This document shows, in pieces, positions 165 through 29,743 of a stretch of 64,000 nucleotides of DNA. The translations under genes were made by a program, and so were the position numbers. Position 1 is the first letter of the stretch. Each line of letters opens with the position of its first letter. Origin of the DNA: a virus (lineage: Duplodnaviria > Caudoviricetes); IMG/VR virus record IMGVR_UViG_2706794597_000005, positions 9,601 through 73,600 of that record; one strand, written 5' to 3'. The notes beneath the pieces are model-generated. The model did no database searches. It worked only from the letters and a program-made list of their open reading frames with translations, and was not told where the DNA came from.

Positions 165-404
165 ATGATGTTCAAAACTATCAGTTAACTATTTAAAAAC
201 GCAATATCCACACCACAGTTATGCTGTTGATATCCGCCTACTTCCATGCGCTGGTAGTAGACTCAAGTGAAGTTTAAACTGCTCGTGATTGCTATCAATC
301 AATTCAAGCAGGTGTTTGTAATTATACCCGTTCAGTGCATGGCTGATACGGGCTCATCGATTTGTCCAAGATTCAGGAGGCTAACAGATGCCCCCTGCTT
401 AAAT

Positions 405-848
405 CTAATCACACCCAAGAGCTGAAGTCGTATCACACATCAGCTTTTCTGATAAATCACTGAGATGGTCAATACCAGCATATTTACAGTTGTAAATGGA
501 TTCCTTCTTACTCTTTAAGTTCATTACACTGACACCACGACTCTGGTCCCCATTTTCGTAGTGACTAAATATTGTGTATTTATACCCTAGATTCATAAAG
601 GAAATATTTAAATAGTCCGTTTGAAATCGAGAGTAATGATTGTAATTAAATCCTATGAAATCATCGCCTTTTGATTCAAAAATAAATTCATCTTTATTAT
701 TTTTTGTTAAGCTGTACCGCAGTACACCGTTATTTTCATTTAACTTGACAACACCTTTTCCAATGTCACATGAAAAATATTCTTCATTTGCAAACGATGA
801 AAAGCATATAAACATTGTAATAAACGTCAGTGTTTTATAATGAAGCAT
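405..848 (-). CDS. Putative periplasmic immunity protein for the upstream muramidase effector
   Basis: 147 aa; N-terminal signal peptide ending SSFA; several Cys; AT-rich; start overlaps the stop of the toxin gene. Confidence 0.7.
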   Translation of the reverse strand: MLHYKTLTFITMFICFSSFANEEYFSCDIGKGVVKLNENNGVLRYSLTKNNKDEFIFESKGDDFIGFNYNHYSRFQTDYLNISFMNLGYKYTIFSHYENGDQSRGVSVMNLKSKKESIYNCKYAGIDHLSDLSEKLMCDTTSALGCD

Positions 849-3159
849 TATAATTTTTCTCCATTTTTAAATCATAACCTTTTTGCCTTGGCCCATTATA
901 TCGTTTGGCGAATGACAACCAATCTTTAGAGCGGATAGAGCGGAGCAAGACACCATCAGACTCGATAAAACTAACGAACGCTTTTAATTGATTTTTTTCA
1001 GATTTACTGATGGCGAGAACAAAATCCTCAGGGCTCGCATAACCTGCAGCTGCATGGTTAGATGCCAGAATCTGAAATTTCCCCCATGATGCGGATTTAA
1101 GTGCCGCACTTTTATCTAGAGCATACGCTCTTACTAGTTTTGAATATTGCACAGATATCGCACCATATCCGCCTGCGACAGAATTTGATATGTCGTCATG
1201 CTGATCATATTTTCCATCTGTATATTTATGAAAGTGATGCCTTTCAAATAATATAGCAGGAACATAATCATCATCTAGTCGGAATTTAAAGTAAGCCCCA
1301 TAAGAACCAGTTTCTGTTTTCGCTACAGCTTTAATTGCTGCAACTTCACAGCCTAATTTACTTGCAGCCTCTACATAATCTGATTCTTCGATTTCATCGC
1401 CATTATAGAAATTTATAAATTCCAAAGGAATTAGATCTTCATTGATAGGAGTTTTAGGGAAATCGCTATTTTTTAACATTTCCAAAAACTCCAACGGGTG
1501 AAAATGCCAGACTGGCTTTCCCTCCATAAACGGCGGCACCTTGCTCATCCACTCGTGCTTCTGCAAGAAAAGCTTATTCACTCCGTTCATCGGCTCCCAG
1601 CCATCTCCGAACAAGCGGCCCCAGCGCGAGTTTTCACTGCCACCATGCCAGTCGCTGTCATGCTTCACCACCAGACGACGAGTCAGTTCCGGCAAATTCA
1701 TCTGCGACGAATGCAGGACGTTAAACAGCCGTTTGTTCAGTTCGCTGCTGTCCCACTCGGTCATCCCGCCTGTATTTCTGGCCCGCAACTGACCCAGCAC
1801 CCCGTCAAAAAATGTCTTCGCTTGTGCGCTGTCCGGCCCTTTTTCAGCATCAAAATGTGACGCCAGACTCTTCACTGCTTCCGTCGCCCAGCTTTCATCC
1901 AGTGGGCGCGAAAAGTCAGTTGTCGGCTCTGCCACTATCGCGGTGAAATTCAGTTGAGTTAAATCATGCTGGCTCAGTTGCTCCACATCGTCCTGATGCA
2001 TCCATGTATGTGGGCGGATTTGAAACCAAACCACACCAGCTTTGTCCGTGAACGGATGTGTCGTTTCACGGCGGAGGATCATGTCGCCGTCTTTTCGCGT
2101 GAGGGCACTCATCGGGCTGAAAGTGGCGTCATCCCCGTCGCCGTTACGCAGATAAAAAGGCCTTTTCAGTTTTAGCTTCACATACTGAGCGCCACTTTTT
2201 ATGCCCTTTATATTCGCCAGCACGTCCGGCACATGCGCATCTGTACTCAACAACTCAATGTGAGCTTTATATTCCGTCCGGTATTCACGGGTATATCCAT
2301 TTTCACTGATGTCCTGCGCGCCCAAAAAGCCCACCGGCTCACCGGCTTTTATCGCCACTTTTAGCGGGGCAGGAGGAAGCACCACCTCATCAAAGACCCC
2401 GTGATTTAGAGCATGGAGCATCCACACCGGCAAACAAACATGACATTCCCCGTCCAGCTCCATAAACTCCGGCCGCACTGATACCCAGAACAGTGGCCCT
2501 GTCGGAATGCCGTCGGTGACCTTTTGCATCAGCCCGAACAGCTCCGAGTTGCCCTTCAGTATGAAGGACGATTCATGCAGCATCGCCAGCACATTGCCCC
2601 GACTCAGAGTTTGCGCCAAGCCGCGTTTGTCTGTCATCACGTCAGGGGCAAGTTCCCGGTCATCATCGCCGCTGCTGTGCTGCCGAAGCCGAACACCGTG
2701 GCCTTTTTCTGTCACTCGATACAGTTTTCTTTTCGGGTATTCCGACAACGGTGCCATCTGCATGTACAGATGGTAAAGATCCAGCCAGCTCGCCGCGTCC
2801 TTCTCATCCGGTTTATACACCGATTTCACCAGCAAAAAGGTCGGTGAATGGCGCAGCTCCATTTTTTCAGCGTGGTTTTCATACAGCAATGCCGGTGTGT
2901 AATCACGGCAAACTCGCCATGCGACTACCTCGCCATCAATCATGCACTGGAGCGGCACCGACTTTTCCGGCGTTTCCTGACTTAGCACAGACGCCGGTGA
3001 TGACGTATCGCCCACATGAACCCCACCATGCCAGTAGCGATTGACACCGACCAACCACAAACCATGAGCCATCTTTTGCATGTCGGTCATCAGTTCGTCG
3101 TAGTGTTCGTATTCCCGCCCGTCTGCCTTCCGTATTGGGTAACGTATTTCCATCCTCAT
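835..3159 (-). CDS. T6SS effector-like polymorphic toxin: WHIX-like N-terminal region plus C-terminal N-acetylmuramidase (DUF3380/PF11860-like)
   Basis: N-terminal YWHGGVH (WHxxxH); WHFHP junction motif; C-terminal AAIKAVAKTE..ILFERHHF..SASWGKFQI..KDWLSFAKRYNGP..GYD muramidase motifs; no signal peptide. Confidence 0.8.
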   Translation of the reverse strand: MRMEIRYPIRKADGREYEHYDELMTDMQKMAHGLWLVGVNRYWHGGVHVGDTSSPASVLSQETPEKSVPLQCMIDGEVVAWRVCRDYTPALLYENHAEKMELRHSPTFLLVKSVYKPDEKDAASWLDLYHLYMQMAPLSEYPKRKLYRVTEKGHGVRLRQHSSGDDDRELAPDVMTDKRGLAQTLSRGNVLAMLHESSFILKGNSELFGLMQKVTDGIPTGPLFWVSVRPEFMELDGECHVCLPVWMLHALNHGVFDEVVLPPAPLKVAIKAGEPVGFLGAQDISENGYTREYRTEYKAHIELLSTDAHVPDVLANIKGIKSGAQYVKLKLKRPFYLRNGDGDDATFSPMSALTRKDGDMILRRETTHPFTDKAGVVWFQIRPHTWMHQDDVEQLSQHDLTQLNFTAIVAEPTTDFSRPLDESWATEAVKSLASHFDAEKGPDSAQAKTFFDGVLGQLRARNTGGMTEWDSSELNKRLFNVLHSSQMNLPELTRRLVVKHDSDWHGGSENSRWGRLFGDGWEPMNGVNKLFLQKHEWMSKVPPFMEGKPVWHFHPLEFLEMLKNSDFPKTPINEDLIPLEFINFYNGDEIEESDYVEAASKLGCEVAAIKAVAKTETGSYGAYFKFRLDDDYVPAILFERHHFHKYTDGKYDQHDDISNSVAGGYGAISVQYSKLVRAYALDKSAALKSASWGKFQILASNHAAAGYASPEDFVLAISKSEKNQLKAFVSFIESDGVLLRSIRSKDWLSFAKRYNGPRQKGYDLKMEKNYNASL

Positions 3160-3492
3160 TCCCTTAAGTTAAGTTTTCCCCATCCATCAGCGTTGAGGAC
3201 GTTACTATATTGCTCCTACAAATCCGGTGTAGGTTGGATCGAATTTATCACACCCTTTTACGCCAGACTTCCGCGTTAATTCAATTTCGGAAAAAACTCA
3301 ATGAAAAGGTGGGTTAACTTAAATCGAGGGATATCTGGTCAATAAACGTTAACTTATCTACCAACACTATAACTATTTTATAATTATCAACAATGTAATA
3401 CACCTAAGTTTACGAGTTCGTATTTGCTCAAATAAACATACATGACGAATCATCCCCTTTAATATGGTGGTATTGGCGCTTTACGTCCCATA

Positions 3493-4524
3493 TCACTCCT
3501 CACTTATCAGTTCATAAGGCTTGAACCCCACCACCTCCTCCCCAACCCACTCATTGACCTCTTTCATCCGTTCCTACAACGGCATTAGCTCGTTGCGCAC
3601 AAACACCTGACTGGCCTTTTCTATGTCACCAAATCCGCCGGTGTTATTGGGGATGATACCCATCATCTGCGGTGGTACGCGGTGGGCGCTGAGTAGGTCG
3701 TCGCGGCTGGCGTTTTTGATATTAAAAAAATCGTCTTTGGTGGCCACCTCGCTGAGTGGGACGATCTTGATACCGTCAGGTTTGCCATTTGGGGCGTAGA
3801 AAAACAGATTTTTAAAATTCCCTAACCCTTTGGTACTGCGCATGGCGTTGCGTAAGGTTTCTACGTCGGTATTACTTTGGGCAGCGTCGGTGACATACAT
3901 GATATAACCAGCATGTGCACCATTCTGGAAATACTTGCGACGAAATAACGTGGCCGATTCGTTCAGCCATGCTGAGTTGAGTGAGCTGAGATATTCAGGC
4001 AAACCATAAAGTTCCTGATTAATATCCGGTTCAATCAGGTGAAATACCGTGCCTGGCTCAAAGCGATGCGGTTCGCGGAAAGATTGCACGAACCAATACA
4101 CATCATCTTCTACTCCACGGCGGGTATATTTGGCCGGTGAACATTCCAGTCGCATTAATTTACCTAAGCGATTGAAGCGCTTCTCCAGAAAGGCATTGCC
4201 GAATACTAAGAAATCCAGTGCAAAGCGGCTAAACTCTTGGGCGCTAAGCAGCGGATGTGGGATAAAAGTGCTGGTCAGAATATTGCGTTTCACATACAGC
4301 GGTGAGCTGTGATGCACCGCCGCACGCAGACTTTTGGCCAACCCGGTGAAACTGATCGGCGGCTCAATCCATTTGCCGTTACCAATGCATTCGGCGTAAT
4401 CCAGAATGTCGCGACGATCCAGCACTGCGGAAGGCTCGCCAAAACTAAACACTTCCATTGGTTGCTGCGGTTGCCGAGTTAGATTGGTTGATTTTACTGC
4501 CTTGCGGCCTTTGCGTTTGCTCAT
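3493..4524 (-). pseudogene. Q: P2 portal protein gpQ with premature TAG at 3574-3576 (316 aa instead of 343 aa)
   Basis: The frame continues past the stop as ELMPL*ERMKEVNEWVGEEVVGFKPYELISEE* to TGA at 3493, matching the P2 gpQ C-terminus (ELIPLQDRIREINGWLGQEVIRF as recalled). Confidence 0.85.
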
Positions 4525-7272: not shown

Positions 7273-8340
7273 ATGCGACCTAATACCCGAATCAAATTCA
7301 ACGCTTACCTGACTCAGGTTGCCAAATTGAATGGCATTGAGGTGAGCGATGTGACGAAGAAATTCAGCGTCGAGCCGTCGGTTACCCAAACCCTGATGAC
7401 CCGAGTGCAGGAGTCATCCGAGTTTCTCAGCCGTATCAATATGGTGCCGGTGGCCGAGTTAACGGGTGAGAAAATCGGTATCGGCGTCACCGGTTCTATT
7501 GCCAGCACTACCGATACCGCGACTGGCGACGAGCGTGAAACCGCTGACTTTGCCGCGCTAGAAGCTCGCCGTTATCAGTGTGAACAGATGAACTTCGATT
7601 TTCATATCCGCTATAACACGCTGGATCTGTGGGCGCGGTATCAGGATTTTCAACTACGGCTACGTGATGCCATCGCCAAACGTCAGGCATTGGATTACAT
7701 CATGGTGGGCTTTAACGGGGTGAAACGTGCGGCTACCTCCAATCGTCAGCAAAACCCAATGCTGCAAGATGTAGCCGTAGGCTGGTTGCAAAAATACCGC
7801 AACGAAGCACCGCAGCGGGTGATGGATAAAGTGACCGGTAAAGAGGGTGCGATAATTTCCAGCGTCATTCGTGTCGGCGAAAATGGCGACTATAAAAACC
7901 TCGATGCGCTGGTATTTGACGCCACCAATACCATGATTGACCCGTGGCATCAAGAAGACCCCGATTTAGTGGTGATCTGTGGCCGTGAGTTGTTAGTCGA
8001 TAAATATTTCCCACTGATTAACCAAAAACAACCCAATAGCGAAATGCTGGCAGCGGATGTGATTGTTAGCCAGAAACGTATCGGCAACTTGCCAGCGGTG
8101 CGCGTGCCCTACTTCCCTGCCAACGCCATGTTAGTAACCCGTCTGGACAACCTATCGATCTATTTTATGGACGACAGCCACCGCCGCCATATCGAAGAAG
8201 TTGCCCGCCGCGATCGCATCGAAAACTACGAATCCATCAAACAGGATTATGTGGTGGAGGAATACGGCTGTGGTTGCCTGATTGAAAATATCCAACTATT
8301 GACTGAAACAAAAAACAAGCATTCAGAAACAGGAGCCTAA
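7273..8340 (+). CDS. N: Major capsid protein gpN
   Basis: 355 aa; KFSVEPSVTQTL, NPMLQDVAVGWLQKYR; P2 gene order. Confidence 0.97.
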   Translation: MRPNTRIKFNAYLTQVAKLNGIEVSDVTKKFSVEPSVTQTLMTRVQESSEFLSRINMVPVAELTGEKIGIGVTGSIASTTDTATGDERETADFAALEARRYQCEQMNFDFHIRYNTLDLWARYQDFQLRLRDAIAKRQALDYIMVGFNGVKRAATSNRQQNPMLQDVAVGWLQKYRNEAPQRVMDKVTGKEGAIISSVIRVGENGDYKNLDALVFDATNTMIDPWHQEDPDLVVICGRELLVDKYFPLINQKQPNSEMLAADVIVSQKRIGNLPAVRVPYFPANAMLVTRLDNLSIYFMDDSHRRHIEEVARRDRIENYESIKQDYVVEEYGCGCLIENIQLLTETKNKHSETGA

Positions 8341-8343
8341 GCC

Positions 8344-9000
8344 ATGTTAAGCCCCGCCAGACGGCACATGATGCGAGTTTTAGCGGCGGAGGCGGCGCAG
8401 CAGATTGAAGAGCCGCTGCGCCATGCCAATGGCTATGAACTAATGCTGTTAAAACTGGCTGAAGATCTTCGAGCCCTAAAAAATGTGCATTCAATGGAGC
8501 GCAAAGCTGAACGCAAACGGGAAATGCTGCCCTACTACGCCCCTTGGGTGAGCGGAGTGTTGAGCGAAGGTCGAGGCGCTCAAGATGCGGTATTGATGAC
8601 GGTTATGGTGTGGAAGCTGGATGTTGGCGATATTGCCGGTGCGCTGGAGATCGCCCGCTATGCCTTGCACCATCACCTCGTGATGCCGGATCGCTATAAA
8701 CGTTCTACGCCTTACTTATTGGCTGAAGATGTGGCCGATGCAGCTACTCGCGCCCACAGTGCGGGCCAGCCCGTCAATATCGACCACCTGCTGGCCACAA
8801 TGGAACTGACCGATGCCGAAGATATGCCAGATCAAGTGCGCGCCAAGCTACACAAAATCGCCGGTATCGTCCTGCGGGACAGTGGTAAAACCGAATCAGC
8901 CTTGGTACATCTCAGGCGCGCGTTACAGCTCAATAGCCATTGCGGTGTGAAAAAAGATATTGAACGGTTGGAGAGCCAACTACGCAAAGCCAGCCGCTAA
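8344..9000 (+). CDS. M: Terminase endonuclease subunit gpM
   Basis: MLSPARRH start, DMPDQVRAKLHK, GVKKDIERL. Confidence 0.93.
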   Translation: MLSPARRHMMRVLAAEAAQQIEEPLRHANGYELMLLKLAEDLRALKNVHSMERKAERKREMLPYYAPWVSGVLSEGRGAQDAVLMTVMVWKLDVGDIAGALEIARYALHHHLVMPDRYKRSTPYLLAEDVADAATRAHSAGQPVNIDHLLATMELTDAEDMPDQVRAKLHKIAGIVLRDSGKTESALVHLRRALQLNSHCGVKKDIERLESQLRKASR

Positions 9001-9089
9001 CCAAACGCGCCCCGCGCCGGGCGGCACGCAAGCCGCGACAACGTACCAGATCAACGTTTGCGTCCACCGCCCTCTATTTTGAGGTTGCC

Positions 9090-9596
9090 ATGACGACAGT
9101 GATTATTTCCAAAAAAGATGAGCAGCCACATGGCGGTACCATAGTCATTCCGCCATCTGCGCATGACGAGCCACTGATAAAGAACACATTCTTCTTTCCC
9201 GATATTGATCCGAAGCGCGTTCGTGACCTGATGCGCCTTGAGCAAACCATCGCCCCAGCCCGGTTACGGGAGGCCATTAAAACCGGTATGGCAGAAACCA
9301 ATGCGGAGTTACACGATTTTCGCGAGCAGCAAGTCGCCGCTGGGTTTAACCGCCTTATCGATGTGCCGTCGGATGAGGTCGATGGGGAGAATATCCGTGT
9401 TTCCCATTATGTGCGCGCCGTTTGTGCAATGGCAACCGCGACCTTGTATGAACGTTATCGCGGCGTGGATGCCAGTGCCAAAGGCGACAAAAAAGCTGAC
9501 AGTATCGACAGCACTATTGATGAGTTGTGGCGTGATATGCGCTGGTCGGTCTCGCGCATCCAAGATAAACCACACTGTATTGTGGGCCACATCTGA
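9090..9596 (+). CDS. L: Head completion protein gpL
   Basis: IKNTFFFPDIDP, ELWRDMRWSV; position after M. Confidence 0.93.
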   Translation: MTTVIISKKDEQPHGGTIVIPPSAHDEPLIKNTFFFPDIDPKRVRDLMRLEQTIAPARLREAIKTGMAETNAELHDFREQQVAAGFNRLIDVPSDEVDGENIRVSHYVRAVCAMATATLYERYRGVDASAKGDKKADSIDSTIDELWRDMRWSVSRIQDKPHCIVGHI

Positions 9597-9799
9597 TGCA
9601 AATCATTGCACAACAAGGCGATACCCTTGACCTCATTTGCGCTCGATATTACGGGTACACAGAGGGGGTATTTGAAACGGTGCTCGCCGCTAATCCGGGG
9701 CTGGCAGAACTTGGGGCGGTACTGCCGCATGGCACTCCCGTTGAGTTGCCAGATGTTCAAACCTCACCTGTCACAGAGACTGTAAACCTGTGGGACTGA
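9596..9799 (+). CDS. X: Tail protein gpX
   Basis: 67 aa; QGDTLDLIC.RYYG..LAANPGLAELG..VNLWD. Confidence 0.95.
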   Translation: MQIIAQQGDTLDLICARYYGYTEGVFETVLAANPGLAELGAVLPHGTPVELPDVQTSPVTETVNLWD

Positions 9800-9801
9800 C
9801 A

Positions 9802-10011
9802 ATGGAGAAGATCAGCACATTTATTACTTACTGGTTATCAGTAGCACTTGCATGGTTCGGCACACAGACGCCAGATAGGTTTGCACTCTATATCGGTGGG
9901 AGCTGCGCCATTTTTACCGCGCTGGTTAATTTTTGGTATCGCCGCAAAACCTTTAATTACCTCAGATCTATGGGGCTTAATGAAGGGGTGACCCGTGAAC
10001 TCAATCGTTAA
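9802..10011 (+). CDS. Holin
   Basis: 69 aa; hydrophobic segments and basic tail; lies between X and the endolysin. Confidence 0.85.
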   Translation: MEKISTFITYWLSVALAWFGTQTPDRFALYIGGSCAIFTALVNFWYRRKTFNYLRSMGLNEGVTRELNR

Positions 10012-10504
10012 ACGTTGCAGTGTCGGTGTAGTGCTGGCGTTGACGATATTGATGCCCGACTTTCATTTACTACATACCTCGCCGGAAGGTCTTGCCCTGA
10101 TCGCAGATATTGAGGGATGCCGTCTGCGGCCCTATCAATGCAGCGCGGGAGTGTGGACATCAGGTATTGGTCACACTGCTGGCGTTGTACCTAAAAGAGA
10201 TATTACCGAGCGTGATGCAGCGGAAAATTTAGTCGCCGATGTTCTCCATGTTGAGCAACAACTGGCGGCCTGTGTGCCGGTAGATATGCCGCAGCCGGTT
10301 TATGATGCACTTGTCAGTTTCTCGTTTAACGTCGGCACCGGAGCCGCCTGTCGCTCGACGCTAGTTTCGTATCTAAAACACCGACAATGGGAACAGGCAT
10401 GTAATCAACTATCTCGCTGGGTATATGTCAATGGAGTCAAAAGTAAAGGGCTGGAAAATCGCCGCCAGCGTGAACGTGCTTATTGTCTTAAGGGAACGCA
10501 ATGA
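9995..10504 (+). CDS. GH24 lysozyme, SAR-type endolysin
   Basis: Hydrophobic N-terminus containing Cys; EGCRLRPYQCSAGVWT (E..C..T triad as in P1 Lyz); GLENRR..E. Confidence 0.93.
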   Translation: MNSIVKRCSVGVVLALTILMPDFHLLHTSPEGLALIADIEGCRLRPYQCSAGVWTSGIGHTAGVVPKRDITERDAAENLVADVLHVEQQLAACVPVDMPQPVYDALVSFSFNVGTGAACRSTLVSYLKHRQWEQACNQLSRWVYVNGVKSKGLENRRQRERAYCLKGTQ

Positions 10505-10926
10505 AAACACTCATCGTGTTGCTAATTCTGGCCGTGTTCGGTGTGCTATGGCTGTGTGACGAGAACGACAAATTAAGCCGGTCGCTTGAGGGAGCTAATC
10601 GCGTCACCAACGAGCAAAAAAGTACGATTAACATGCTGAAAAATCAACTTAGCGTTGCTGCCAACCGAGCTGATAAAAATGAGAGAGCACAGGTTACCCT
10701 ACGACAACAGCTTGACTCCGCTGGAAAACTGGCAGCACAGCGTGAACAAACCATCACAAGATTACTCAATGAAAACGAAACCTTTCGCCGCTGGTACCGC
10801 ACTGATTTGCCTGATGTTGTGCACCGGATGCACCGACGCCCCGCCTGTACATCCGCCAGTCATTGTTTACAGCGGATGCCCGAGAGTCAGCCTTTGCCCG
10901 ATGCCCGGCAGCGACCCGAAAACTAA
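10501..10926 (+). CDS. lysB: Inner-membrane spanin LysB (Rz-like)
   Basis: N-terminal TM, coiled coil, ENETFRRW..LPDVV. Confidence 0.9.
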   Translation: MKTLIVLLILAVFGVLWLCDENDKLSRSLEGANRVTNEQKSTINMLKNQLSVAANRADKNERAQVTLRQQLDSAGKLAAQREQTITRLLNENETFRRWYRTDLPDVVHRMHRRPACTSASHCLQRMPESQPLPDARQRPEN

Positions 10927-11059
10927 CGGCGATTTGAGTGCCGATATTCGTCAGCTTGAGCATGCACTCGAACGTTGTGCGTTACAGGTTGAAATTGTTA
11001 AACAATGTCAGGATGAGTTAGATGCTGAAACCCGACAGTTTGCGCAAAACCCTCACTGA
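10769..11059 (+). CDS. lysC: Outer-membrane spanin lipoprotein LysC (Rz1-like)
   Basis: MKTKPFAAG..LCTGC lipobox, Pro-rich, TNGDL motif; overlaps the end of lysB. Confidence 0.88.
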   Translation: MKTKPFAAGTALICLMLCTGCTDAPPVHPPVIVYSGCPRVSLCPMPGSDPKTNGDLSADIRQLEHALERCALQVEIVKQCQDELDAETRQFAQNPH

Positions 11060-11489
11060 GGCTGTTCCGGTATTACGTACCAATCCCGATATGCTGCGTT
11101 TATTTGTCGATAACGGCAAAATTGCCGCCACACTGGCCGCATCACTGTCATTTGAAAAACAGTACACTCTCAATGTAGTGGTGACGGATTTCACTGGCGA
11201 TATTGATTTACTGCTGGTGCCGATAATGGCATGGCTACGTGAAAATCAGCCCGACATTATGACCACCGATGAAGGCCAGAAAAAAGGCTTTACGTGGTAT
11301 ACCGATATCAATAACGACAATAGCATTGATGTCAGTATCAACCTGTTACTGACCGAGCGTACCCTTGTCAGGGAGGTCGACGGCGCGTTACATGTGCAAA
11401 ACATACCGGAGCCACCGCGACCAGAACCGATAACGCGACCGGCAGAAATGTGGGTTAATGGTGAAATGGTGAGTCAGTGGAATGAATGA
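11022..11489 (+). CDS. R: Tail completion protein gpR
   Basis: MLKPDSLR..SLSFEKQYTLN..WLRENQPD. Confidence 0.93.
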   Translation: MLKPDSLRKTLTEAVPVLRTNPDMLRLFVDNGKIAATLAASLSFEKQYTLNVVVTDFTGDIDLLLVPIMAWLRENQPDIMTTDEGQKKGFTWYTDINNDNSIDVSINLLLTERTLVREVDGALHVQNIPEPPRPEPITRPAEMWVNGEMVSQWNE

Positions 11490-11928
11490 ATTTAAACCAT
11501 TTGAAGATAAGTTGGCTAGTCTGATTGCTGCGCTATCACCCGCAAGCCGTCGCAGTATGACTGTCGAAATTGCGAAGAAGCTACGCCAACGTCAGCAACA
11601 GCGAATCAAATCCCAAAAATCGCCGGATGGCACGGCCTATGCTCCGCGAAAGCGCCAACCGATCAAAGCGAAGAAAGGCCGAATTAAGCGGGAAATGTTC
11701 TCCAAATTACGCACCAACCGCTTTATGAAAGCCCAAGGCGATAACAGTGCTGCCGTGGTGGAGTTTACCAGCAAGGTACAGCGTATTGCCCGAGTGCATC
11801 AATATGGGCTAAAGGATAAACCGGGACGCAACAGTGCTGCGGTGGAATATCCCGAGCGTAAATTACTCGGGTTTAATAATGGTGATACCGAACTGATAGA
11901 GGATGAAATAATTAGAATGTTAAGTTAG
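11482..11928 (+). CDS. S: Tail completion protein gpS
   Basis: RIKSQKSPDGTAYAPRK, IARVHQYGL, YPERKLLG. Confidence 0.93.
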   Translation: MNEFKPFEDKLASLIAALSPASRRSMTVEIAKKLRQRQQQRIKSQKSPDGTAYAPRKRQPIKAKKGRIKREMFSKLRTNRFMKAQGDNSAAVVEFTSKVQRIARVHQYGLKDKPGRNSAAVEYPERKLLGFNNGDTELIEDEIIRMLS

Positions 11929-11931
11929 TGC

Positions 11932-12702
11932 TCATTCAAAACGTCTTTCCTCATTGTTTTTAAAATCAATAAACTTATTGTTAGTATCAAAGTAAATCAC
12001 ATAACCAAGAGTTAAAAATGACGTAATTATAAAGAGCAATACAATTAGTATCATCGCCGCAATGAATGACGAATTGTTATTTTCTATTGCGGTCATTAGT
12101 TCTTTTTTCTCTGCGGGATCTTTTGTAAGAAGGTAGCCACATGCTGATATTAGAATTTTCTTATTTGTAGCGGTTGTAAGTTCCCTGCATTGTTTCGCGT
12201 TGAAATATTCATTGCTTTCGGGGTCGTAAACATAGATTTCGGAGATAAGGGCGCGTTCACTGCCTGCATTAAACGAAGCATAATTATATTTGTATGTTCT
12301 TACCGAGTTGCAAACCATAAGAATGGATGCAAAAAAAAGTAAAACTAACGCTACATAGAGAACAATTTCAGCTTTGCCATGTTTGAACTTTCCTATTGGA
12401 GGAGCAAAGGAAAGAAATCTGAAGTTTTTTTCAGATAGAATTCCTTTGCTTATGGCTTTAGATACCAGCCTCGCGTCTTTCTTGTTGAGAACATTGATGC
12501 CGTGGTAAAGCCGAAGTAATTGCAAGTCTAGGAAGTCGCCATCCAGATTTTTTATAATTCTGTCAGTAAAGTCGACTTTAAGCGGTTTAGATATTAATCG
12601 GAGTAGATAGCCAATGCCTCCCGACACAACAAGATACAAGATAATAATCAACCAAAATATTTTATAAAGACCATCAATTCCACTGCCAATAAAATCAAAC
12701 AT
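11932..12702 (-). CDS. AT-rich cargo (moron) membrane protein of unknown function at the S-V (P2 orf30) site
   Basis: 256 aa; three hydrophobic segments; opposite strand to the late operon; low GC. Confidence 0.8.
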   Translation of the reverse strand: MFDFIGSGIDGLYKIFWLIIILYLVVSGGIGYLLRLISKPLKVDFTDRIIKNLDGDFLDLQLLRLYHGINVLNKKDARLVSKAISKGILSEKNFRFLSFAPPIGKFKHGKAEIVLYVALVLLFFASILMVCNSVRTYKYNYASFNAGSERALISEIYVYDPESNEYFNAKQCRELTTATNKKILISACGYLLTKDPAEKKELMTAIENNNSSFIAAMILIVLLFIITSFLTLGYVIYFDTNNKFIDFKNNEERRFE

Positions 12703-12821
12703 CTTGGATTCCTTTTCAAATTATTCAGCTTTCAAAACATCGTAACGATTACCTGTTGTGTAGTTTACTGCCCAATAGCATCACGTTGCCATCAAATGGC
12801 CACACCGGCATCCTCTCCGTT

Positions 12822-13457
12822 ATGAACACACTCGCAAATATTCAAGAACTTGCCCGCATGCTGCGCAATATGATCCGCACTGGCGTGATTGTTGAAACCG
12901 ACCTGATTGCTGGCCGCTGCCGTGTGCAAACGGGGGGTATTTATACCGACTGGCTCCAGTGGCTGACTCACCGCGCTGGAGGTTCTCGCACATGGTGGGC
13001 ACCCTCGGTGAGTGAGCAGGTATTAATTTTGGCGGTCGGTGGTGAACTTGATACGGCTTTTGTGCTGCCGGGGATTTTTGCCAACGACCATCCTGCGCCG
13101 TCTGCCTCGGCGGATGCCTATCACGTTACTTTTCCCGATGGTGCTGTGATTGAGTACGAACCGGAGAGCAGTGCATTAACCGTCAGCGGCATTAAAACCG
13201 CCAACATCACTGCATCGCAAACTCTTATCGCCTCCGTGCCAGAGGTACGGGTTAGCGCATCAACCCGTATTACTCTCGATTCGCCCGAAGTGATTTGCAC
13301 CAATACGCTGATCACTGGCTCACTGGAGGTACAAAAAGGCGGCAAGATGAGCGGCAATATTGAACATAGCGGCGGTTCATTGTCGTCAAACGGCAAAGTG
13401 TTGCATACCCACCAACATCCAGGCGACAGCGGCGGCACAACAGGAGCGCCACTATGA
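12822..13457 (+). CDS. V: Baseplate spike gpV
   Basis: 211 aa from ATG 12822; RNMIRTG, TDWLQW, C-terminal HTHQH metal-binding motif. Confidence 0.95.
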   Translation: MNTLANIQELARMLRNMIRTGVIVETDLIAGRCRVQTGGIYTDWLQWLTHRAGGSRTWWAPSVSEQVLILAVGGELDTAFVLPGIFANDHPAPSASADAYHVTFPDGAVIEYEPESSALTVSGIKTANITASQTLIASVPEVRVSASTRITLDSPEVICTNTLITGSLEVQKGGKMSGNIEHSGGSLSSNGKVLHTHQHPGDSGGTTGAPL

Positions 13458-17480: not shown

Positions 17481-18170
17481 TTATGACATAAGAGGAAATG
17501 AACCTGTGGCTGCGAAGAAGCTTTGGGGTATATAGTTATTTATTTTATTCTCATAACAATACTCGATTAGCTGTTTTTTACTGGTAACATTAATTTTCCC
17601 ATAAATATTCTGAATTATGTTACAGATTGTCCTCGGTGATAAATGGATTTTTTTTGATATCTCCTTGCTGGTAAATGATTGCATGATATAAAAAATAACT
17701 TCCCACTCTCGTTTTGAAAACAGTTCAGATGGAGGTGTAAACACCAGTGAGGTTGGGATTTTTATTTTATACAAATTCTTCAGTAAGAGATTATCGACCG
17801 GTCTTCCATGGAAAATCGTTCCTTGTGAAACGCCGTCTTTACCTATTAAAGGATATTTATCAAAAAACCAAGCTTGAAAATAGGTTTGCCCGTCAAAAGC
17901 ATGTATTTCAATTGATGTTATACGGTCTTGCAATAGCTCGACTTTGCGGTCATGCTGCTGAAAATCTGTTTGAAATTCAGCGGTAGGCGCTGGGAGTTCT
18001 CCGTCAAATCGTCCTTCAACGCAAAATTTGTTTGGTAATGCCAATAAGGCTTTGTATTTATCATTTGCATAAATAAACTTTGATTGATTATCTTTGGCCC
18101 CCCAAGGCTCAGAACTGAGTTGCCAAAAATGTATTAATAACTTGAGTGAGTCGTATAGGGATTCATTCAT
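17481..18170 (-). CDS. PAS-domain LuxR-type HTH regulator (PAS4-LuxR solo-like)
   Basis: N-terminal EPWGAKD..FIYAN PAS motif; C-terminal FSKREWEV..KEISKKIHLSPRT LuxR HTH. Confidence 0.88.
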   Translation of the reverse strand: MNESLYDSLKLLIHFWQLSSEPWGAKDNQSKFIYANDKYKALLALPNKFCVEGRFDGELPAPTAEFQTDFQQHDRKVELLQDRITSIEIHAFDGQTYFQAWFFDKYPLIGKDGVSQGTIFHGRPVDNLLLKNLYKIKIPTSLVFTPPSELFSKREWEVIFYIMQSFTSKEISKKIHLSPRTICNIIQNIYGKINVTSKKQLIEYCYENKINNYIPQSFFAATGSFPLMS

Positions 18171-18324
18171 TCAATTCACCTTTTAGTGTCGTAATTATAT
18201 TTTAATTATTAATTAAATAGGTAACCATTTATCTTGTTTTTATATTTAAGTCGTGATTGTTTAATTATTAAATAGCGGTTACCATCAGCTGTCTAGGTCA
18301 TTTTTTACTCTGCTAACAAAAAGG

Positions 18325-18720
18325 ATGTTTGGCATGATAATTTTTTCAAATTTTGGTGGTAATAAAATAAAAGAAGACCACGTAGTGGGTATATCAATTA
18401 TAGAAATGTTTAAGAAAAAGGGTTTACAGGCCTATGGTACAATAATTGAACAAGGAAAGTATGTTGGCTGCCATAGTCATACTGAGGGTGAAGAATGGTA
18501 TATCATCCTTTCGGGGGAGGGTTCTATTTGGACAGCAGATGTTTTAGAGGGGATTTTAAAAAATCACCGAGAGGATAAATTTAGCAAAGGTTCTGTATTT
18601 TGTATTTATCCCAATACTGCACATCAACTCACCGCGAAAACAACGGTAGAGTTCGTATTTTTATGTCCAGAATCGCATGTTACCGATGACAGATATATGT
18701 TTGAAAATATTTTTAGGTAA
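18325..18720 (+). CDS. Cupin-domain protein
   Basis: HSH..GEEWY.ILSGEG and G.VFCI.PNTAHQ cupin motifs. Confidence 0.85.
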   Translation: MFGMIIFSNFGGNKIKEDHVVGISIIEMFKKKGLQAYGTIIEQGKYVGCHSHTEGEEWYIILSGEGSIWTADVLEGILKNHREDKFSKGSVFCIYPNTAHQLTAKTTVEFVFLCPESHVTDDRYMFENIFR

Positions 18721-24046: not shown

Positions 24047-25206
24047 TGTTAGATGTGCTGACAAAAGATGCGGGTAGCATATTGATGCCGGATTTTATGT
24101 TAACGCTTGATAGTCGTGATATTACCGGCAATATCAGCAACCGCTTGATAAATCTAACGCTGACTGATAATCGCGGCTTTGAAGCCGACCAGCTTGATAT
24201 TGAACTTGATGATGCCGATGGGCGGGTCGCGCTGCCGCTACGCGGTGCCGTTTTGACGCTGTTTCTCGGCTGGAAAGGATTTGCGCTGATCGATAAAGGC
24301 AACTTTACCGTTGATGAAGTGGAACATCGCGGCGCACCGGATACCGTGACCATCCGTGCCAGAAGTGCAGATTTTCGTGGAACGCTAAATTCCAGACGCG
24401 AGGAATCATGGCATGACACCACGCTCGGCGCTATCGTTGAAGCCATCGCCACGCGGAACAAACTCATTGCCAGCGTAGCTCCAGCATTAGCCTCAATTAA
24501 AATTCCGCATATCGACCAGTCGCAAGAGTCCGACGCTAAATTCCTCACTCGCCTTGCCGAACGGAACGGAGGCGAAGTCTCCGTCAAAGCGGGGAAGCTG
24601 TTGTTTCTCATAGCTGGCCGCGGCGTAACGGCCAGTGGTCACCCCATTCCACCAGTCACCCTCACCCGCAGCGACGGCGATCGGCACCAATTTGCCATCG
24701 CTGATCGGGGCGCTTACACCGGTGTTACAGCTAAGTGGTTACATACCAAAGACCCGAAGCCGCAAAAGCAAAAAGTGAAGCTCCAGCGCAAACCCAAAGA
24801 ACAGCATTTAAGGGCGTTACAACACCCCAAAGCGAAACCGGAAGCGAAGAAAAAAACCACTAAAGAGCAGGAAACGCGCGAGGGTGAATATATGGTGGGC
24901 GAAGCGGATAACGTGTTTGCCCTAACGACGGTCTATGCCACACAAGCGCAAGCCATGCGCGCCGCTCAGGCAAAATGGGATAAATTACAACGTGGTGTGG
25001 CTGAGTTTTCTATTACGTTGGCCATTGGCAGACCCGAGCTTTACCCGGAAACCCCTGTCAAAGTGAAAGGATTTAAGTCGGTGATCGATAACCAGTCGTG
25101 GATAATTACTAAAGTTATTCATTCGCTCAATAATAGCGGTTATACGACAAACCTCGAACTTGAAGTTCTATTATCAGATATAAGCTATGAAGCTACTGAT
25201 GGATAA
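24046..25206 (+). CDS. D: Baseplate hub / late control protein gpD
   Basis: DNRGFEADQLDIELDD, HIDQSQESD. Confidence 0.95.
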   Translation: MLDVLTKDAGSILMPDFMLTLDSRDITGNISNRLINLTLTDNRGFEADQLDIELDDADGRVALPLRGAVLTLFLGWKGFALIDKGNFTVDEVEHRGAPDTVTIRARSADFRGTLNSRREESWHDTTLGAIVEAIATRNKLIASVAPALASIKIPHIDQSQESDAKFLTRLAERNGGEVSVKAGKLLFLIAGRGVTASGHPIPPVTLTRSDGDRHQFAIADRGAYTGVTAKWLHTKDPKPQKQKVKLQRKPKEQHLRALQHPKAKPEAKKKTTKEQETREGEYMVGEADNVFALTTVYATQAQAMRAAQAKWDKLQRGVAEFSITLAIGRPELYPETPVKVKGFKSVIDNQSWIITKVIHSLNNSGYTTNLELEVLLSDISYEATDG

Positions 25207-25709: not shown

Positions 25710-26060
25710 CCTAGAACCACATGTAACACACTGTTTTTAAAGCCTAAAACTGCATTCACACTGTGTATTTAGGAAAACAATGACCATTTAGCGACACTTT
25801 TGCGGCACACTCTTGCGTCACGAAAATGGCACGCACCAACATCATCTCACTCAATGCTACCTTGGCGCTTTGATTGTCCGCGATATGCAATTTTTCGTCA
25901 TGCCTTGGGCACAAATCTGACACACCTATCCCCACCCTGCGATCAATAGCTGACCATAAGCATCTCAAATGCTACACTCTTGCCGTCCGTTTTTGATAGC
26001 GATGCCTCAATGACGGAACCGTATCCAGTGATAACTATTCAATTAATTAAAGAGTTTAAA

Positions 26061-27146
26061 ATGAAGCAAGAAACAGGGATTTACCTGGATAGAATCGACC
26101 ACTTACGGTTTTTTGCTGCACTTCTAGTTTTTGTCCGCCACTTCAACGGTGGATATACATTTAATGGGTCAATTGACTCTATCAGGGGAATTGTTGGTGC
26201 GATCTTCTCATATGGTGTGACTGGGGTAAGTTTATTCCTTTTTATGTCAGGATTTTTGTTTTGCATCATATGTGATGCTGGTAAAAAAGATATAAATTAT
26301 TCTGGTTTTATGAGAAACAGAATATTAAGAATATTTCCACTTCTTACGTTTTCTATGTTTATAGTAATAAGTATGAGCGCTGGAACTTCATCGCCAATGG
26401 ATATATTTAGGCTTCTAACGCTACAGCTTAATACTGGAGGAATCAGCTGGGGAGTTGATAAATTCAATCTTTGGCCTATATGGACAATTGCTGTTGAATT
26501 TCAATTTTATCTAATATTCCCATTTATAATACGAGCATTTAAAAATGGCGGATATAAATATATAATTTCTCTAATGGTATTGATGTTAATAATTAGGCTG
26601 ATAATAATAGAGACATATCAGGCCAAATCTGGAGATATATTTTATAATTCACTAATAGGCAGGCTTGACCAGTTTTTGGTGGGTATTATTTTTGGGAAAA
26701 TGTATTTGAATGGATGCTTTTCTTGGTGTAAAAGAAAGATAATGGCAATACCCACAATGATTATTTGTTTGATTCTTATATTTTGCTATTTCTACTTAAG
26801 AAAACCATACATGAATTACGCCAATAGCCTTGGTTTCATTTTTGAAGCTTTACTGTGGGGTTTATTTGCAATGGGATATATTTCAATGTCAGGAGTGATA
26901 AATAGAACAATAAATACTATCCTTTCAAAGTTGGGAGAGATAAGTTTTTCATTCTACTTACTTCACTTCCCTGTTATGGTTGCTGTAATTAGCTATTTTA
27001 AAGTTAACTTTCAATCTCAGTATAGCGAAAATGGATTGGCTGTAACGTTATTAATTGGGCTTCCTTGCGTGATATTTGTTTCATCATTATCTTATTATGT
27101 TATTGAAAAGCCTTTTCTTGGAATGAGAAAAAAGTATAGCAAATAA
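26061..27146 (+). CDS. Acyltransferase 3 family membrane protein, probable O-antigen acetyltransferase
   Basis: RIDHLRFFAALLVF..H, GVSLFLFMSGFL, RILRIFP, WTIAVEFQFYL, GEISFSFYLLH; about 10 TM; no SGNH domain; AT-rich; convergent with the tailspike. Confidence 0.9.
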   Translation: MKQETGIYLDRIDHLRFFAALLVFVRHFNGGYTFNGSIDSIRGIVGAIFSYGVTGVSLFLFMSGFLFCIICDAGKKDINYSGFMRNRILRIFPLLTFSMFIVISMSAGTSSPMDIFRLLTLQLNTGGISWGVDKFNLWPIWTIAVEFQFYLIFPFIIRAFKNGGYKYIISLMVLMLIIRLIIIETYQAKSGDIFYNSLIGRLDQFLVGIIFGKMYLNGCFSWCKRKIMAIPTMIICLILIFCYFYLRKPYMNYANSLGFIFEALLWGLFAMGYISMSGVINRTINTILSKLGEISFSFYLLHFPVMVAVISYFKVNFQSQYSENGLAVTLLIGLPCVIFVSSLSYYVIEKPFLGMRKKYSK

Positions 27147-27172: not shown

Positions 27173-29743
27173 TTAAACGTTATAGCCAGAGATATTAAAG
27201 CGTTGTCTTAATGAAGAGGCTGTTTTGATAGATACTCCACTACTAGATATAATGCAATTAACACTGAATAGTGCAGATACGCCAACATTCATGCTGAATG
27301 TCCCATTATCTACACTGGTTTTCTTAATTACGGCGGCCCCGCTTGCGTCAGTAAATGCAATGCTCGTAGTTGTAGCGTCTTTTGTTATCGTGAACTTAAT
27401 AACACGCGTTCCTGAAGACCCGTTGTCAATATTAATGTAGCGATCTCCTGTTGCTACATTCATTGCGGTAGGTATTCCTGTCTCAAAAATAGTAATAGGG
27501 GAAGGCCCATTTGCAATGCACCCTATCTCTATTCTACCTTGAGTGTTCCACAGAGCTCCAAACGTAATAACATTCCCACTCAGATAATTGTTAGAGCACA
27601 TTGATAAATCAAACAGGTTTGTCGGGGTGCCACTCCCCGTAAGGAATAGATTACCTGATGATGAAATCTTGTTGTCACTTATAGATAGCATCATGTTCGC
27701 GTACCCAGTAGCTAGAGTTGTAAAATCACTAAATACTTGAACATTAGAGAACCGGCCGATATTATTTGAAAAATCAACAACCCCAGAAAATCCCCCGCCA
27801 CCTGACAGGTTACCATTGGAGATTCCTATAATTGCTGATACCGTTGCTGATGGTATATTAAATCTATTATTACTTACTGTAATTTGTTGATAAAAGTTGA
27901 ATGGGTAGCACGACAGTTGAATGAAGTTAGTATTAAGTGTTGATAATGAGCTGAAGTGGTTATTCGTAAGCCTTATGTTATTATTGACTGGATTCCCATG
28001 TATATGTCCTAATCTTATCAATTCAATATCACAGTTATCTATATGAATAAACCTATTGCCATATTCAAGGGGGCCAATAGGCTCATTATGCCAATCGTCA
28101 GTTTCAGGAAAGAAAAATGTCCCTGTACTATTGGTTTCATTTGCAGTAGGGAAAATAGCCTTGATGGCAGAAACGTAAGATCTCCTGTAGTACCAGCGCT
28201 TATTTTGGCTTGTGTACTGGTATGAACTCTTTATTTTATGAGGAAAAACATGCCAATCATTCCAAGCATAGCAGTCAATGACCGTAATATCACTTTCTGT
28301 TACCAGTCTGGCACCATTATAAATATCATAAACAGAATTTCCATTAACCCGTATTTTCACCCCTGACTGATAACCATTGTAGTGATTAAGACTCCAGCAC
28401 TCAAAAACCCCAACGCATGTATAACTATAAATTCCATCCGCCCAAAACGTATCATCATTTATGATGCTATAATCATGAACTGAAACCGTGTTCATGGACT
28501 TCTGTAGTTGACGCTCAAAAAGCCCCTCGTTTGTTGTGCCAGCGTTAACTAAAGTGCCTGCCATGTTATGCACGGTAAAATTAGCAATATCCATTGTTTG
28601 GAACGGCCAGTCAGATATCTCTAAGATAAATTCGAATGGCTCTTCACAATGAAAATTAGTCATAGATATAGAGTTGCAACCGAAATCAGTAGTTTCTGGG
28701 TTTACATTTAATTTCCCAAGCCCAGAGAAAAGAATAACTCGCCCATGAGTTGTAAACTGTGAAAATGAAATATCCTTAATTTTGTATGCACTTCCAAGCT
28801 CGACACCACACATGCGAGTTGATTTTGCGCTGCTGGGAGCGCTGCCTTCAGCATGAAAGTTTTTTGCATTAATAAACCCCCCGGGATTAAGTACAAAACC
28901 AAGGCCTAACCCAGGATAAATAGTACCCCCGCCCCAAATATCCAACGATGACACATGTAAATTCATATCATCTGGCAGATATACAGACTCGCCCATCAGG
29001 TTGAGATTTACCCCGCCAAATGTTGACTCCATCTCAGCGAACGCCGCTTTGTTCAATGCGCCCGCTGTAGCATTGCTATACTTCCCGCCAAATGCTGTGA
29101 TGTCACCGTTCCGCCAGGCGAGATATTTGCTTAGTGGTTCATTGGGGAAGTTCTCACCACTATGATGTACAAGTCCAGACCCAGTGGGTTTTGCTAGCTC
29201 AATCATGACATCGGAGGCGCTCCCACTCTGGGGGAGAACACCGATTGGTCTCCCTCCAGCAATCGCAACTAACTTACCCTCCATTTCTGCAAGTGGTGGC
29301 ATTTCAGGTATATAGGTTTCAGGGATGCGAAGGGAACGCTGAAATATGTTTGGGTCGCCGCTAAATGGATATGTTGAGCGGAGGTTGATTTCTGAGTAGC
29401 CAACCCTCACCGGGTCTTCTGCTTCAACTTGCCAACAGTCACCGTAAATAGAAAATACCATAGTGCCATTAACGACATCACGCGCGCCGTCAAAGTCAGG
29501 AGATCGTCGCCATGTGGCTGGGGATGCAACCCAGATACCATTATCGATAGGGTTATCTTGCCCCATAACAAGAACTCGCATTCCCGTTGTTGTTGTTACG
29601 GTTCTAGTCCCTGTAAATGTTGATGATGTAATTGTTTGCTCGCCAAACAATGTTATGTGGTAGTCAGACGAGATGGCTACAGCTGGCTTTAGTGCAACAC
29701 TCGTCGTTAAACCGTATAGCCGATCTTCTTGCGTAGCTGGCAT
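27173..29743 (-). CDS. Tailspike / receptor-binding protein
   Basis: 856 aa; N-terminal particle-binding region (RVLV.GQ....NGIW), DITAFG linker, Asn/Ser-rich beta-helix-like body; last gene of the tail operon. Confidence 0.85.
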   Translation of the reverse strand: MPATQEDRLYGLTTSVALKPAVAISSDYHITLFGEQTITSSTFTGTRTVTTTTGMRVLVMGQDNPIDNGIWVASPATWRRSPDFDGARDVVNGTMVFSIYGDCWQVEAEDPVRVGYSEINLRSTYPFSGDPNIFQRSLRIPETYIPEMPPLAEMEGKLVAIAGGRPIGVLPQSGSASDVMIELAKPTGSGLVHHSGENFPNEPLSKYLAWRNGDITAFGGKYSNATAGALNKAAFAEMESTFGGVNLNLMGESVYLPDDMNLHVSSLDIWGGGTIYPGLGLGFVLNPGGFINAKNFHAEGSAPSSAKSTRMCGVELGSAYKIKDISFSQFTTHGRVILFSGLGKLNVNPETTDFGCNSISMTNFHCEEPFEFILEISDWPFQTMDIANFTVHNMAGTLVNAGTTNEGLFERQLQKSMNTVSVHDYSIINDDTFWADGIYSYTCVGVFECWSLNHYNGYQSGVKIRVNGNSVYDIYNGARLVTESDITVIDCYAWNDWHVFPHKIKSSYQYTSQNKRWYYRRSYVSAIKAIFPTANETNSTGTFFFPETDDWHNEPIGPLEYGNRFIHIDNCDIELIRLGHIHGNPVNNNIRLTNNHFSSLSTLNTNFIQLSCYPFNFYQQITVSNNRFNIPSATVSAIIGISNGNLSGGGGFSGVVDFSNNIGRFSNVQVFSDFTTLATGYANMMLSISDNKISSSGNLFLTGSGTPTNLFDLSMCSNNYLSGNVITFGALWNTQGRIEIGCIANGPSPITIFETGIPTAMNVATGDRYINIDNGSSGTRVIKFTITKDATTTSIAFTDASGAAVIKKTSVDNGTFSMNVGVSALFSVNCIISSSGVSIKTASSLRQRFNISGYNV

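Follow-up and report, generated by a model that had tools for sequence, protein, structure and literature searches.

WHIX is a domain of type VI secretion system (T6SS) effectors that is recognized by a WHxxxH motif, is bipartite, falls into subclasses I and II and is found fused to toxins that target peptidoglycan (Fridman et al., 2025; PMC12135965). According to the main text of that report, the domain sits at the N-terminus or behind an extension of more than 99 amino acids (aa), signal-peptide genes located downstream serve as immunity genes, and a T6SS is encoded in >98% of the genomes that contain WHIX; its Table 1 lists 353 unique WHIX proteins with an N-acetylmuramidase toxin. Membership was defined there by a WHIX position-specific scoring matrix (PSSM) used in RPS-BLAST at E ≤ 1e-6 with a coverage of at least 70%, and the founder is WP_005373349.1. 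An effector cluster of the T6SS has also been described on a temperate phage, namely the PAAR2-TseV1-TsiV cluster of the Burkholderia gladioli P2-like phage AB4 (PMC13366799). WHIX-muramidase effectors, orphan and horizontally moving T6SS effectors and a T6SS effector cluster on a P2-like phage are already known. Polymorphic toxins of temperate phages are reportedly the subject of Jamet et al. 2017, a work cited in the AB4 phage paper. In this study, we analysed a stretch of 64,000 nucleotides (nt), referred to as the window, which comprises bases 9601-73600 of the 73.6-kb IMG/VR provirus record IMGVR_UViG_2706794597_000005, the preceding 9.6 kb of the record being referred to as L001. A P2-like prophage in this window carries a gene for a 774-aa WHIX-type muramidase that overlaps a gene for a 147-aa putative immunity protein.

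The pair probably encodes a subclass I WHIX muramidase cargo effector and its immunity protein, as a promoter-less mobile cassette which has settled in the P2 cargo site and would arm the T6SS of the lysogen. Its features, with the basis of each assignment, are as follows.

835-3159, minus strand: gene of the 774-aa effector, WHIX-type N-terminus plus PF11860 N-acetylmuramidase (list of open reading frames, ORFs; Pfam; homologues)
1465-3159, minus strand: WHIX-type loading domain, residues 1-565 (phmmer matches spanning 3-565; AlphaFold2 model)
3016-3033, minus strand: WHGGVH, residues 43-48, the WHxxxH signature (invariant W43, H44, G46 and H48)
1495-1509, minus strand: WHFHP, residues 551-555, where the conserved WHIX domain ends, just ahead of the point of toxin swapping
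847-1347, minus strand: PF11860 muramidase toxin domain, residues 605-771 (Pfam; endolysin chain 7q4s)
405-848, minus strand: 147-aa putative periplasmic immunity gene (ORF list; linkage of homologues to the toxin domain)
786-848, minus strand: signal-peptide-like N-terminus of the 147-aa protein, residues 1-21 (sequence read directly)

An earlier, sequence-only reading of this DNA had described a 774-aa protein with an N-terminal WHGGVH and a WHFHP junction, and both motifs, at residues 43-48 and 551-555, prove to be traits of a whole family. Across 32 aligned sequences, which reach down to 23% identity, W43, H44, G46 and H48 of the first motif and W551, H552, H554 and P555 of the second are invariant, as are H300, D307 and H500, and invariance over this range argues that the two motifs have not arisen by chance. 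An exhaustive phmmer search of 1.84 billion representatives returned 406 proteins at E ≤ 0.001. Many of these matches are bipartite, covering residues 3-143 plus 255-565, and the domain starts at residue 1 in some relatives and after an extension of 150-175 aa in others. A word-indexed search found 227 proteins, with approximately 560 N-terminal residues kept at 60-91% identity, and the C-termini joined to this N-terminus belong to PF11860, PF05838, GH104, GH19 (PF00182) and pesticin (PF16754). An Atlas search gave clusters of hypothetical proteins only at 0.94-0.97, and pesticin, GH19 and VgrG3-C-terminal clusters as leads scoring <0.9. Pfam gave no match to residues 1-600, and no NCBIfam family was found for either the 774-aa or the 147-aa protein. 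Taken as proxies, the motif, the bipartite conservation, the swappable toxins and the vgrG link in relatives support the identification of residues 1-565 as a WHIX T6SS domain. The WHIX-type N-terminus proposed earlier is likewise backed by the alignment, the phmmer architecture and the invariance of WHxxxH.

The vgrG link was seen in a scan of one genome per species, which yielded 211 relatives. In 32 of the best 80 loci of these 211, the WHIX gene is preceded on its own strand, at no more than 5 kb, by a vgrG homologue, and in most of the 32 the aligned part of vgrG ends about 0.8 kb ahead of the WHIX gene. In L029, 12 nt separate the end of a vgrG ORF (785 aa) from the start of a WHIX-only ORF (578 aa). 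Within this locus (7635-13015), the 578-aa WHIX-only protein is succeeded by a separate 347-aa ORF without a Pfam match, an arrangement that looks like the split form mentioned by Fridman and coworkers (PMC12135965). Like the WHIX effectors described in the main text of that report, the present protein has a WHxxxH motif near its N-terminus, within a bipartite domain of about 560 aa, and a C-terminus that is directed against peptidoglycan and can be exchanged; its gene is followed by one with a signal peptide, and relatives are encoded behind vgrG. It differs in that the examples given there lie in T6SS clusters or auxiliary modules, whereas the gene described here is an orphan in a P2-like prophage. 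Searches with the TssC, Hcp, VgrG and PAAR families gave no match in the entire 73.6-kb record, in agreement with the earlier remark that the window contains no vgrG, hcp or PAAR gene.

The C-terminal part had been read as a DUF3380-type muramidase, and Pfam places PF11860 at residues 605-771 with E = 2.9e-44 and 151.8 bits against a cut-off of 22.3. The last 189 residues (586-774) match solved endolysins (7q4s/7q4t, E = 1.6e-34; 5nm7, E = 1.5e-25; 7rum), and the domain also matches PHROG endolysin families. E616, which lies within a KTET block, aligns with a Glu of 7q4s and is presumably catalytic. The endolysins 7q4s/7q4t and other PF11860 endolysins of phages share this C-terminal domain with the present protein but not its setting, as here it is fused to a 565-aa WHIX domain, accompanied by a secreted partner and encoded outside the late block. 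The WHIX part (1480-3159) has a GC content of 53.5%, the toxin part (835-1479) one of 36.7% and the 147-aa gene one of 32.3%, and DNA homology to L003, an IMG/VR contig on which the C-terminus is a GH108 domain, stops at window position 1481, at about residue 560 and just past WHFHP.

The gene that follows had been noted as an overlapping signal-peptide gene; the two ORFs overlap by 14 nt (835-848). The 147-aa protein begins with MLHYK, continues with a hydrophobic stretch ending in SFA|NEE and looks like a Sec substrate, as judged by reading the sequence rather than by a predictor. Its homologues fall into 34 clusters, none of which bears a name or a Pfam family, and four Cys residues are invariant in 22 homologues. 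The predicted model of the protein is all-beta (pLDDT 86.7) and found no row at E ≤ 0.001 in a Foldseek search against the PDB; nor did PADLOC report a defence family for either protein at E ≤ 0.001. The relationship of this gene to the toxin is apparent from the 83 loci compared, of which 80 are genomic and three viral. Wherever the muramidase C-terminus is complete, at eight loci, a homologue of the 147-aa protein lies directly downstream, and this extends to L059 and L053 with WHIX parts just 30-34% identical to that of the window; five of the 83 loci have an immunity homologue beside a toxin remnant of 34-50 aa, and the remaining 70 have none. The 147-aa gene therefore tracks the toxin domain and not the WHIX domain. 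The earlier suggestion of a periplasmic partner of the toxin is in keeping with this linkage. From the linkage, the GC contrast and the break in homology near residue 560, toxin and partner appear to travel together and to be exchanged as a unit at the point where WHIX ends, much as in polymorphic toxin systems.

The carrier is an apparently complete P2-like (Peduoviridae) prophage of a Yersinia-type host. The P2-type gene set and order are present: the A, Q and P genes match those of Yersinia Peduoviridae phages, and ORF sizes are P2-like up to position 25206. In L001 the ORFs follow the P2 order of integrase-sized ORF, repressor-sized ORF, A, a PvuRts1I-like/SRA gene and a 123-aa ORF; A is the gene that matches the Yersinia Peduoviridae phages, and the integrase and repressor labels are based on position and size only. 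The late genes extend up to a gpD-sized ORF, which adds to the impression of completeness, and include a PF00959 lysozyme, so that the phage has a lysin of its own. The relevant features of the window are the following.

201-3465, no strand assigned: variable cargo segment (blastn against Yersinia phage vB_YenM_201.16)
164-145, minus strand: terminator-like GC hairpin with a T run, downstream of the pair and inside the conserved segment 1-200
3160-3465, minus strand: non-coding, AT-rich (35.6% GC) DNA ahead of the effector gene, with a counterpart only in L007, the Yersinia P2-type copy
3574-4524, minus strand: P2 Q-type portal gene (PF04860; phage matches)
4524-6287, minus strand: P2 P-type terminase gene (phage matches)
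9995-10504, plus strand: lysozyme gene of the phage itself (PF00959), lying with the late structural and lysis ORFs
25206 (end): gpD-sized ORF, the late-gene boundary downstream of P

The pair had been placed in the cargo site between A and Q of P2, and comparison with vB_YenM_201.16 agrees with this placement. By blastn, the segments 1-200 (90% identity) and 3466-4524 of the window are conserved in that phage, which has just 352 bp in place of 201-3465. As the hairpin is inside the conserved segment, the pair lies between Q and a conserved terminator-like site. We take the A-Q interval to be the site known in P2 as old/tin, with a role in defence against other phages. The likeness to that site lies in the position, between replication-side accessory genes and Q, and in contents that vary among related phages, but the cargo here would be an interbacterial weapon with its antidote, neither of which has a PADLOC match. 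The 774-aa gene was also considered as the lysin of the phage's lysis cassette and was rejected; it is in the A-Q site, on the strand opposite to the late structural block, and the PF00959 lysozyme is separate. Next to the effector pair, and in the same interval, is the PvuRts1I-like/SRA gene (L001 8539-9408, plus strand) of a methyl-directed restriction enzyme, which PADLOC assigns to mREase_II with E = 1e-127. A gene for defence and one for attack thus appear to be neighbours at the A-Q site. If the pair is delivered by the T6SS of the host, interbacterial weapons would join a cargo site that has mostly been discussed for anti-phage genes.

As a P2-like phage with a T6SS effector gene and immunity gene as a moron, the carrier resembles the temperate phage AB4 (PMC13366799). 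The AB4 cluster, as described there, includes a PAAR protein as spike tip, and its toxin is a nuclease, whereas the pair described here has no spike part, would act on the cell wall and would need a VgrG of the host. No WHIX effector in a P2 cargo site or prophage, and no account of one sharply bounded cassette common to P2-like phages, conjugative plasmids and sites flanked by insertion sequences (IS), was found in a search of literature outside subscription journals and supplements. The words 'prophage' and 'mobile' are absent from the main text of PMC12135965, and its S1 Dataset of neighbourhoods may list such cases. The pair can be regarded as a known kind of weapon in a rarely described carrier.

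A survey of P2-like elements for the same cassette had been proposed, and three such elements were found to have a related cassette at the A-Q site: the window itself, one of the 80 genome loci (L007) and one of the three IMG/VR loci (L003). L007 is part of a complete Yersinia chromosome, and its cassette is 94% (WHIX), 98% (toxin) and 96% (immunity) identical to that of the window at the amino-acid level, while its Q, P, A and int are just 78%, 75%, 62% and 50% identical to those of the window prophage. The P2-like element in L007 (1-9700) is decayed; residues 283-586 of P and D remain, no match to O, N, M, L, K, FI or T was found, and the cassette is intact. L003 has GPA (PF05840), a WHIX part of 93% identity, a GH108 toxin and a different downstream ORF of 134 aa. 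Effector copies 94-99% identical to that of the window occur in several Yersinia genomes. Outside such elements, the pair was found on 64 plasmid records out of 72,556, and 43 of the 64 are typed as conjugative, with an IncI1 plasmid and the E. coli plasmid p2, which has the identical 14-nt overlap, as examples. In Salmonella enterica subsp. arizonae (L010 8940-13982) it is flanked by two rve-family transposase genes within housekeeping genes, and on an IMG/VR contig (L002 1353-9959) a 789-aa relative directly follows filamentous-phage genes (Rep_trans, Zot and secretin). The WHIX domain was found in none of the 50,697 records of the phage collection. The DNA common to the phage, plasmid and IS contexts extends from a point 13 nt ahead of the ATG as far as the stop codon of the immunity gene, and the mobile unit therefore lacks a promoter of its own. 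One effector-immunity unit with identical limits, whether carried by phages, by conjugative plasmids or at sites flanked by IS, offers a system for studying how orphan T6SS effectors spread and how they are matched to spikes.

The fold of the WHIX domain was modelled with AlphaFold2 from alignment A1 (pLDDT 92.0, pTM 0.90), and the model is disordered from residue 567. Foldseek found no row at E ≤ 0.001 for it in the PDB, the best rows being low-score chance matches, and a profile of alignment A1 searched against PDB sequences matched only the GH19-type C-termini of other rows and not the WHIX part. In an all-against-all structure aligner, M23/LytM domains account for 17 of the 20 top rows (Z = 7.0-9.6, 119-144 residues aligned; by the aligner's own caveat, a Z under 8 may reflect a common arrangement). 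These rows include StM23, DipM, a V. cholerae zinc peptidase, SpoIIQ, EnvC, LytM, lysostaphin and Csd3, and the aligned residues are spread over residues 2-566 of the model. SH3-like domains match residues 144-236 and helical bundles match residues 413-491. M23 peptidases carry the motifs HxxxD and HxH. In the WHIX domain HxGxH (44-48) lies near the start and HxH (552-554) near the end, in the same order as HxxxD and HxH of M23, and H44, H48, H300, H500, H552 and H554 form an invariant His cluster. On account of the consistent rows and the order of the motifs, the domain resembles, at the level of the modelled fold, an M23/LytM core that is split and contains an SH3-like insert and a helical bundle. 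It departs from M23/LytM in having His for the Asp of HxxxD, so that the motif is HxxxH, and in about 400 inserted residues, and it has no Pfam match to PF01551 (M23) at E ≤ 1. The same literature search, with its limits as to subscription journals and supplements, found no paper that links the WHIX core with M23; in the main text of PMC12135965, 'M23' applies solely to N-terminal extensions. An M23-like core with an invariant His cluster provides a testable idea of how WHIX may hold the tail of VgrG.

With respect to the capacity of the host, the nearest view is given by G001, the Yersinia genome that holds L007. There, tssC is matched at three loci, of which one is broken, and vgrG is present in four copies. 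Behind one of these vgrG genes (801 aa) is a native WHIX gene, which an in-frame stop divides into ORFs of 453 and 577 aa.

L106 1058-7380: native vgrG of G001, split WHIX gene and then a 269-aa ORF

A WHIX relative at E ≤ 1e-10 was found in five of the 28 genomes searched from the genus of G001. A compatible T6SS is therefore plausible in this lineage, judging from gene content. The proposed sequence of events would be as follows. A promoter-less pair would have entered a P2-like prophage at its A-Q site, which is of the old/tin type, and would be expressed there in the lysogen. The 774-aa protein would ride the host T6SS as WHIX cargo loaded on a host VgrG, and residues 586-774 would cut peptidoglycan in the periplasm of the cell that is hit. 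The 147-aa protein, exported by Sec, disulfide-bonded and periplasmic, would neutralize specifically this toxin domain and so rescue cells that possess it. A lysogen with a compatible T6SS would acquire an extra weapon together with self-protection and would kill otherwise identical prophage-free cells. That the phage arms the T6SS of its lysogen, and that lysogens gain over non-lysogens, is a suggestion to which a single line of evidence points, the T6SS genes of G001. If the pair is delivered by the host T6SS, lysogeny would decide between neighbours, and lysogens could kill non-lysogenic kin, a fitness effect that would favour the carrier.

Several observations weigh against an effector that arms the lysogen. 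None of the accessions named in PMC12135965 was among the cluster listings examined, so that direct identity with a catalogued WHIX protein is not established and membership rests on proxies rather than on the PSSM of those authors. Within the clade of the effector itself (at least 58% identity), none of the 12 genome loci has vgrG within 10 kb; these genes are orphans. The flanks of the record have no match in G001, which is thus not the host in question, and a T6SS in this particular host is only presumed. The L007 element is decayed, and carriage there says nothing on benefit to the phage. As to expression, a promoter scan upstream of the effector (3160-3573) gave no site that agreed with the consensus at 9 of 12 positions or more (a weaker candidate noted by eye within 3340-3400 is given no weight), the minus strand between Q and the effector showed nothing resembling a terminator, and none of the RNA runs searched contains the stretch; the pair might be read through from the late P-Q transcript instead of being expressed in lysogeny. 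Some of these points would suit a chiefly defensive benefit, in which the immunity protein guards the lysogen against the same muramidase of its neighbours and the effector is a passenger, perhaps undeliverable in this host. Immunity homologues kept beside toxin remnants of 34-50 aa at five of the 83 loci suggest that immunity alone is under selection in some genomes, the effector clade is never beside vgrG (0/12 loci) and a T6SS in the host is only presumed. We nevertheless find this explanation unlikely, since the effector ORF is intact over 774 codons with the conserved residues of the family kept, and a protein that is 94-99% identical across several Yersinia genomes is not what would be expected of a useless passenger, which should decay.

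An effector delivered by the host T6SS also accounts better for the pair than do the phage-centred readings. The C-terminus matches PHROG endolysin families and solved endolysins, an M23/LytM-like core with an SH3-like insert is an architecture common in phage lysins, and the gene has the orientation of P and Q with no predicted terminator between Q and itself, as would suit a virion-associated peptidoglycan hydrolase that aids DNA entry, or an accessory endolysin, made late with P and Q. Such a lytic role is most improbable, however, in a phage that has its own PF00959 lysozyme and whose relative has 352 bp here, for an N-terminal domain found in 0 of 50,697 phage records. The pair is moreover found on plasmids and between IS genes, wider relatives follow vgrG, and a secreted, toxin-linked partner would not be expected of an endolysin. 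Late read-through from P-Q, together with the pesticin-type C-termini of some relatives, could also be accommodated by a bacteriocin-like toxin that is freed by prophage-induced lysis and acts from outside without a T6SS, which is hardly to be expected at all: a domain for receptor binding or translocation was detected by neither Pfam nor NCBIfam, the family has a link to vgrG, and a muramidase outside the outer membrane cannot reach peptidoglycan. A more speculative proposal, possible if doubtful, departs from the preferred explanation in two respects. The pair would be a selfish addiction module that works at the population level for any carrier, and WHIX, more than a mere handle, would be an M23-type domain that is split and binds metal; its substrate groove would hold the tail of VgrG, and the domain may itself cut peptide cross-links once delivered. 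If the first part is true, cells that lose the carrier would lose immunity and be killed by their T6SS-armed siblings, so that the carrier is kept without benefit to the host; if the second is true, 'single-blade' WHIX effectors would become two-bladed.

The record contains further accessory genes. At its left edge, beside the integrase-sized ORF, is a 571-aa AAA ATPase (L001 1-1716, minus strand) that has matches to PtuA-like models and, with E = 3e-219, to PDC-M01A, a candidate defence family. A 256-aa ORF (11932-12702, minus strand), which lies on the opposite strand within the late region and matches phrog_2407 (function unknown) with E = 3.6e-97, may be another moron. Between the tail-fibre and tail-sheath genes are a PAS-LuxR(GerE) regulator (17481-18170, minus strand) and a cupin protein (18325-18720, plus strand), in a position (17481-18720) that we take to be the Z/fun cargo site of P2. 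Directly after the gpD-sized ORF is an Acyl_transf_3 gene (25980-27146, plus strand), a family that includes the O-antigen acetylases of lysogenic conversion. It is followed in tandem by a second prophage, recognized by PHROGs at window positions 27173 to about 58000, where genes were recognized for a terminase, a head-tail adaptor, a tail protein and large virion proteins, one of which has a lytic domain, along with an O-like/DnaD-like replication gene.

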